This document shows positions 44,543 through 45,055 of a stretch of 64,000 nucleotides of DNA, piece after piece. Numbering within the stretch: position 1 is the stretch's first letter; every line of letters begins with the position of its first letter. Source of the stretch: Escherichia coli (GTDB lineage: Bacteria > Pseudomonadota > Gammaproteobacteria > Enterobacterales > Enterobacteriaceae); the NCBI RefSeq assembly GCF_044647545.1, contig NZ_CP172818.1; one strand, written 5' to 3'. A program made the translations under genes and the position numbers. The notes beneath the pieces were generated by a model that saw only the letters and a program-made list of their open reading frames with translations, ran no database searches and had not been told where the DNA came from.

Positions 44543-45055
44543 GTGAGTGGAATACTGACGCGCTGGCGACAGTTTGGTAAACGCTACTTCTGGCCGCATC
44601 TCTTATTAGGGATGGTCGCGGCGAGTTTAGGTTTGCCTGCACTCAGCAATGCCGCCGAACCAAACGCGCCCGCAAAAGCGACAACCCGCAACCACGAGCC
44701 TTCAGCCAAAGTTAACTTTGGTCAATTGGCCTTGCTGGAAGCGAACACGCGCCGCCCGAATTCGAACTATTCCGTTGATTACTGGCATCAACATGCCATT
44801 CGCACGGTAATCCGCCATCTTTCCTTCGCAATGGCACCGCAAACGCTGCCCGTTGCTGAAGAATCTTTGCCTCTTCAGGCGCAACATCTTGCATTACTGG
44901 ATACGCTCAGCGCGCTCCTGACCCAGGAAGGCACGCCGTCTGAAAAGGGTTATCGCATTGATTATGCGCATTTTACCCCACAAGCAAAATTCAGCACGCC
45001 CGTCTGGATAAGCCAGGCGCAAGGCATCCGTGCTGGCCCTCAACGCCTCAGCTAA
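44543..45055 (+). CDS. secM: secretion monitor SecM (secA translation regulator)
   Basis: GTG start within track ORF 44372..45055; signal peptide; C-terminal arrest motif [17 protein letters not shown]. Confidence 0.9.
44990..45040 (+). other. SecM ribosome-stalling (arrest) peptide coding segment
   Basis: Codons for [17 protein letters not shown] read directly, four codons before the secM stop. Confidence 0.85.

Follow-up and report, generated by a model that had tools for sequence, protein, structure and literature searches.

Does the last residue of SecM matter when it differs from that of the laboratory strain? The window analyzed here, a 64,000-nucleotide stretch of Escherichia coli DNA, contains a secM gene whose product ends in QRLS. 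The first-pass annotation of the window, made from the sequence alone, gave QRLT as the end of the K-12 protein and proposed that the Ser, if real, was a conservative strain polymorphism that lay outside an intact arrest motif and was unlikely to affect stalling.

The window SecM matched Pfam family PF06558 with 195.9 bits (cutoff, 25) and the NCBIfam equivalog NF002799.1 with 231.2 bits (cutoff, 100), the latter match covering residues 3 to 169. The protein is identical to RefSeq protein WP_000014320.1. The gene product is the secretion monitor, a cis-regulator of secA translation. The start at 44543 agrees with the RefSeq annotation of genomes that are 100% identical over the stretch (Table 1). 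A 227-amino-acid open reading frame from 44372 in the list of open reading frames was rejected as merely an in-frame upstream extension of secM; the RefSeq start is 44543. The gene directly precedes secA on the same strand, with a spacer of 61 nt between the end of its stop codon (45055) and the secA ATG (45117). Positions 33000 to 57000 of the window are identical to ST648-type E. coli chromosomes (MS6198, ECONIH1, IMT16316, and others), except for one 2-base insertion. The two extra bases, at 48330-48331 (GACGCTCCGCCCGCGTC here and GACGCTGCCCGCGTC in the otherwise identical ST648-type genomes), occupy the loop of a REP-like palindrome between mutT and yacG and are the sole difference in 24 kb.

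Table 1. Features of the secM-secA region, with positions in the window
Feature	Position	Strand	Description and basis
secM coding sequence	44543..45055	+	GTG start, 170 codons plus TAA; translation, HMM matches, annotation of identical genomes
Arrest motif	44990..45040	+	Residues F150 to 166, identical to K-12; translation, alignment, pattern search
Predicted helix, 5' arm	45039..45052	+	CUCAACGCCUC, bulged A, then GC; codons 166-170; MFE and partition-function folding
Tail Q167 R168 L169 S170	45041..45052	+	CAA CGC CTC AGC; four codons past the stall point
Polymorphic base	45051	+	G here (AGC, Ser170), C in K-12 (ACC, Thr170); alignment to K-12
secM stop codon	45053..45055	+	TAA; translation
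Predicted helix, 3' arm	45096..45109	+	GCGGGGCG, bulged U, then UUGAG; holds the GAG of the secA ribosome-binding site; folding
secA	45117..47822	+	901 amino acids; list of open reading frames; annotated as secA (WP_000905780.1) in the identical MS6198 chromosome

Alignment with a reference SecM, the check that the first-pass annotation had proposed, demonstrated that the K-12 ending given there was accurate. The reference, secM of K-12 MG1655 (b0097, NP_414639.2; NC_000913.3 107705-108217), does not end in QRLS; its tail is QRLT, with ACC as codon 170, whereas translation of the window yields QRLS, with AGC. The two proteins are identical at 169 of 170 residues, and S170T is the sole amino acid difference. 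Nine nucleotides differ between the two coding sequences; eight of these differences are synonymous, and the ninth falls at the second position of codon 170. There are no differences in the 61-nt spacer between secM and secA. The proteins are alike in length (170 amino acids), GTG start, signal-sequence region, and arrest motif. Because residues 1 to 169 are identical to those of K-12 SecM, for which the signal sequence has been characterized, the window protein is expected to possess an N-terminal export signal. At the protein level the window does not differ from the SecM (WP_000014320.1) of CFT073, ST648 strains, and MS6198. At the DNA level its secM is 100% identical to that of ST648-type genomes, whereas CFT073 differs at three synonymous or spacer positions.

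During synthesis of K-12 SecM the ribosome stalls at Gly165/Pro166 and is released in a force-dependent manner; the secA ribosome-binding site is masked by a stem-loop located where the ribosome stalls, and the stalled ribosome exposes it (PMC10951299, PMC6993859). Both papers define the SecM motif as 150-FxxxxWIxxxxGIRAGP-166. The window protein matches this definition at residues 150 to 166, including Arg163 and Pro166, with base 44990 as the first base of the TTC codon for Phe150. The arrest motif is therefore encoded intact, as had been claimed. A degenerate DNA pattern for F-x4-WI-x4-GIRAGP occurred once in the 64-kb window, compared with 0.00 occurrences expected from 100 shuffles. Identity to the K-12 protein through residue 169 suggests, by likeness, that stalling would also take place here. 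In the mechanism known from the literature, the stall would free the secA ribosome-binding site, and SecA and SecYEG pulling on the N-terminal signal sequence would release the stall. The last four secM codons would be translated only once the arrest had been released. Residue 170 cannot affect the arrest because residues 167 to 170 are still to be synthesized at the time of the Gly165/Pro166 stall, which supports the earlier expectation that stalling is unlikely to be affected. A literature search on SecM tail peptides, including QRLS, returned only unrelated acronym matches.

The frequency of the two alleles was determined with a pair of 55-mers that differed only at the polymorphic base. 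With this base at position 28, each 28-base megablast seed word must span it, a design in which each query matches its own allele alone. Among 5426 complete E. coli genomes, AGC (Ser170) was found in 2520 (about 46%) and ACC (Thr170) in 2903. Together the two alleles accounted for 5423 of the 5424 genomes that have secM. No secM match was obtained for two of the 5426 genomes, and one secM-bearing genome matched neither 55-mer. Three complete RefSeq assemblies of E. coli have their secM match, with the Thr allele, on a record labeled as a plasmid. Direct reading of reference strains gave Ser170 for CFT073, Sakai O157:H7, IAI39, SMS-3-5, and one ST648 strain and Thr170 for K-12, HS, IAI1, and 55989. 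We take the Thr references to represent phylogroups A and B1 and the Ser references to represent B2, E, and F; the panel covers these phylogroups. The SecM of SMS-3-5 (L093:8340-8852) has an S157N exchange within the arrest motif, at a noncritical 'x' position, as well as E134G.

Related species provide a means of assigning direction to the exchange. A scan of one genome per species with the arrest-motif DNA pattern recovered 86 loci with 84 readable SecM tails; the scan was not exhaustive, and Salmonella enterica subsp. enterica, Escherichia fergusonii, and the main E. coli representative were absent from it. Ser ended 78 of the 84 Enterobacteriaceae tails, 65 of which were exactly QRLS. The remaining six ended in Gly, Val, or Cys, and none ended in Thr (0/84). 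The tail after Pro166 was four codons long in every one of the 84 species sampled. Carriers of QRLS include Escherichia albertii, two cryptic Escherichia lineages, Salmonella arizonae and diarizonae, Citrobacter, Klebsiella, Enterobacter, Kosakonia, and Buttiauxella. Judged from these tails, Ser170 is the ancestral state and Thr170 the derived state, because Ser ends most tails and Thr ends none. By the same sequence comparison Thr (ACC) is an allele that arose within E. coli, where the A and B1 references that were read, K-12 among them, carry it. Haplotypes not identical to the 55-mer query made up 227 of the 2520 Ser matches versus 4 of the 2903 Thr matches, and this greater diversity of Ser haplotypes fits an older allele. 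The G/C change at 45051 is an old, common polymorphism. Thus, the earlier interpretation is supported, with one correction: the exchange is conservative and outside the arrest motif, but it is not peculiar to the strain, because Ser is found in nearly half of the complete E. coli genomes and the Thr of K-12 is derived.

The reading that we favor, with a probability of about 0.88, is that this locus is the normal secM-secA regulatory unit of an ST648-type E. coli chromosome, with the ancestral SecM C-terminus QRLS. Orthologues from the Enterobacteriaceae (PF06558, NF002799) share with the window not only F-x4-WI-x4-GIRAGP and a four-codon, mostly QRLS tail but also a predicted helix that joins codons 166-169 to GGCGUUUGAG upstream of secA. 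The 'x' positions of the motif vary among genera, and the window has the Escherichia form.

The helix deserves attention in its own right. Base 45051 is contained in the mRNA helix that controls secA, a point that the first-pass annotation had overlooked, and folding predicts only a small effect of the polymorphism. A helix between the end of secM and the secA ribosome-binding site was predicted for the window, with a z-score of -2.88 for a 146-nt stretch. Its predicted core pairs CUCAACGCCUC, in codons 166-169, with GGGGCG-U-UUGAG just upstream of secA. The polymorphic base is at the loop end, where G is predicted to add two pairs (GC with GC) beyond the bulged A. Among 83 distinct orthologous sequences the core helix was predicted in 78. 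In 66 of the 83, the middle base of the last codon was predicted to pair with the region that precedes the secA ATG by no more than 40 nt. Poor alignment of the spacer kept RNAalifold from recovering the long-range helix in a MAFFT alignment of 85 secM-secA junctions; conservation of the helix was judged instead from folds of single sequences and an anchored pair count. An Rfam search of positions 44300-45400 of the window, with E-values up to 1, found no family and none covering the helix.

One possibility raised by these predictions is that having G at 45051 matters for function through the RNA and that the switch in the K-12 lineage is slightly leakier. Folded in an identical background, the Ser allele had an ensemble energy of -40.36 kcal/mol, compared with -39.28 kcal/mol for the Thr allele, which makes the G allele about 1.0 to 1.1 kcal/mol more stable by prediction. 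The corresponding minimum free energies were -38.44 and -36.60 kcal/mol, and the pairing probability of the polymorphic base was 0.89 with G versus 0.38 with C. Furthermore, G was conserved as the middle base of the last codon in 79 of the 83 distinct orthologues and was paired in the minimum free energy structure in 75 of the 83. However, the predicted pairing of the stretch with the ribosome-binding site is equal or nearly equal in the two alleles. Its mean pairing probability was 0.705 for both alleles in the 146-nt context, and in longer contexts the values were 0.661 versus 0.637 and 0.679 versus 0.663, a difference of at most 0.024. The two extra pairs are at the loop end, beyond the bulge, and the footprint of a stalled ribosome would be expected to cover the whole 5' arm in either allele. 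The anchored pair count gave helix pairs that are conserved with one-sided changes only and without a single compensatory double change. In addition, both alleles persist near 50% in E. coli. We consider a functional difference at the RNA level improbable on this balance. Slightly less probable still is the more specific proposal that base 45051 and the Ser170 codon are constrained across the Enterobacteriaceae as a helix cap, that the A/B1 allele weakens the helix slightly, and that basal secA expression is measurably different as a result. There may be a small effect on basal secA repression.

The strong conservation of Ser, encoded by AGY, at position 170 across genera, outside the arrest motif, suggests some constraint, either on the RNA helix or on the protein tail, and suggests that this constraint has been relaxed in the K-12 lineage. 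[quoted passage not shown] Another explanation, which we consider very unlikely, is that the C-terminal residue influences the fate of SecM released into the periplasm, for example, through recognition by the tail-specific protease, and that the exchange between Ser and Thr alters turnover. Nakatogawa and Ito reportedly found in 2001 that the tail-specific protease rapidly degrades SecM after its export, and the C-terminal Ser is kept in 78 of 84 species despite synonymous third-position variation in the tail codons. However, replacement of Ser by Thr is very conservative, Gly, Val, and Cys also occur at position 170 in other species, and no function is known for mature SecM once it has been exported. 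The overlapping RNA helix explains the conservation equally well. That the Ser codon entered the window through faulty sequencing or assembly, or that K-12 acquired its Thr by mutation in the laboratory, has nothing more in its favor than a single-base difference, and both were rejected as hardly credible because 2520 independent complete genomes carry AGC and 2903 carry ACC, with natural isolates such as IAI1, 55989, and HS among the latter.

With the locus read as a normal secM-secA unit bearing the ancestral tail, we infer that the Ser/Thr170 polymorphism is in all likelihood neutral or close to neutral. Ser170 is a naturally common allele, in a regulatory gene that is well understood and a protein that is already cataloged (WP_000014320.1), and it matters little. 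Essentially all work on SecM has used K-12, which has the derived QRLT form, whereas QRLS represents the ancestral family consensus. Therefore, differences from K-12 at this site should not be flagged as strain peculiarities.

Several orthologues in the species scan departed from the common pattern. A cryptic-lineage genome, Escherichia sp. E1V33 (L082), has the tail QRLC (TGC), and two Kluyvera loci (L009 and L037) have QRLV. Tails of LRLG, FRLG, or LRLS were found in Klebsiella sp. BIGb0407 (L008), an uncultured Cedecea (L029), an Enterobacteriaceae metagenome-assembled genome (L042), and Citrobacter sp. JGM124 (L078). In these four loci the RNA arms are recoded to about CUUCCGUCUU and AAGACGGAAG; the 3' arm shortly precedes UUUGAGAA instead of overlapping it, and the helix looks like a compensated, shifted version of the usual one. 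The secM-secA spacer in L062, which is labeled Citrobacter freundii M-21, is 182 nt, compared with the usual 55 to 68 nt, apparently due to an inserted structured element. The SecM motif of this locus resembles that of Atlantibacter, and the species label may be wrong.
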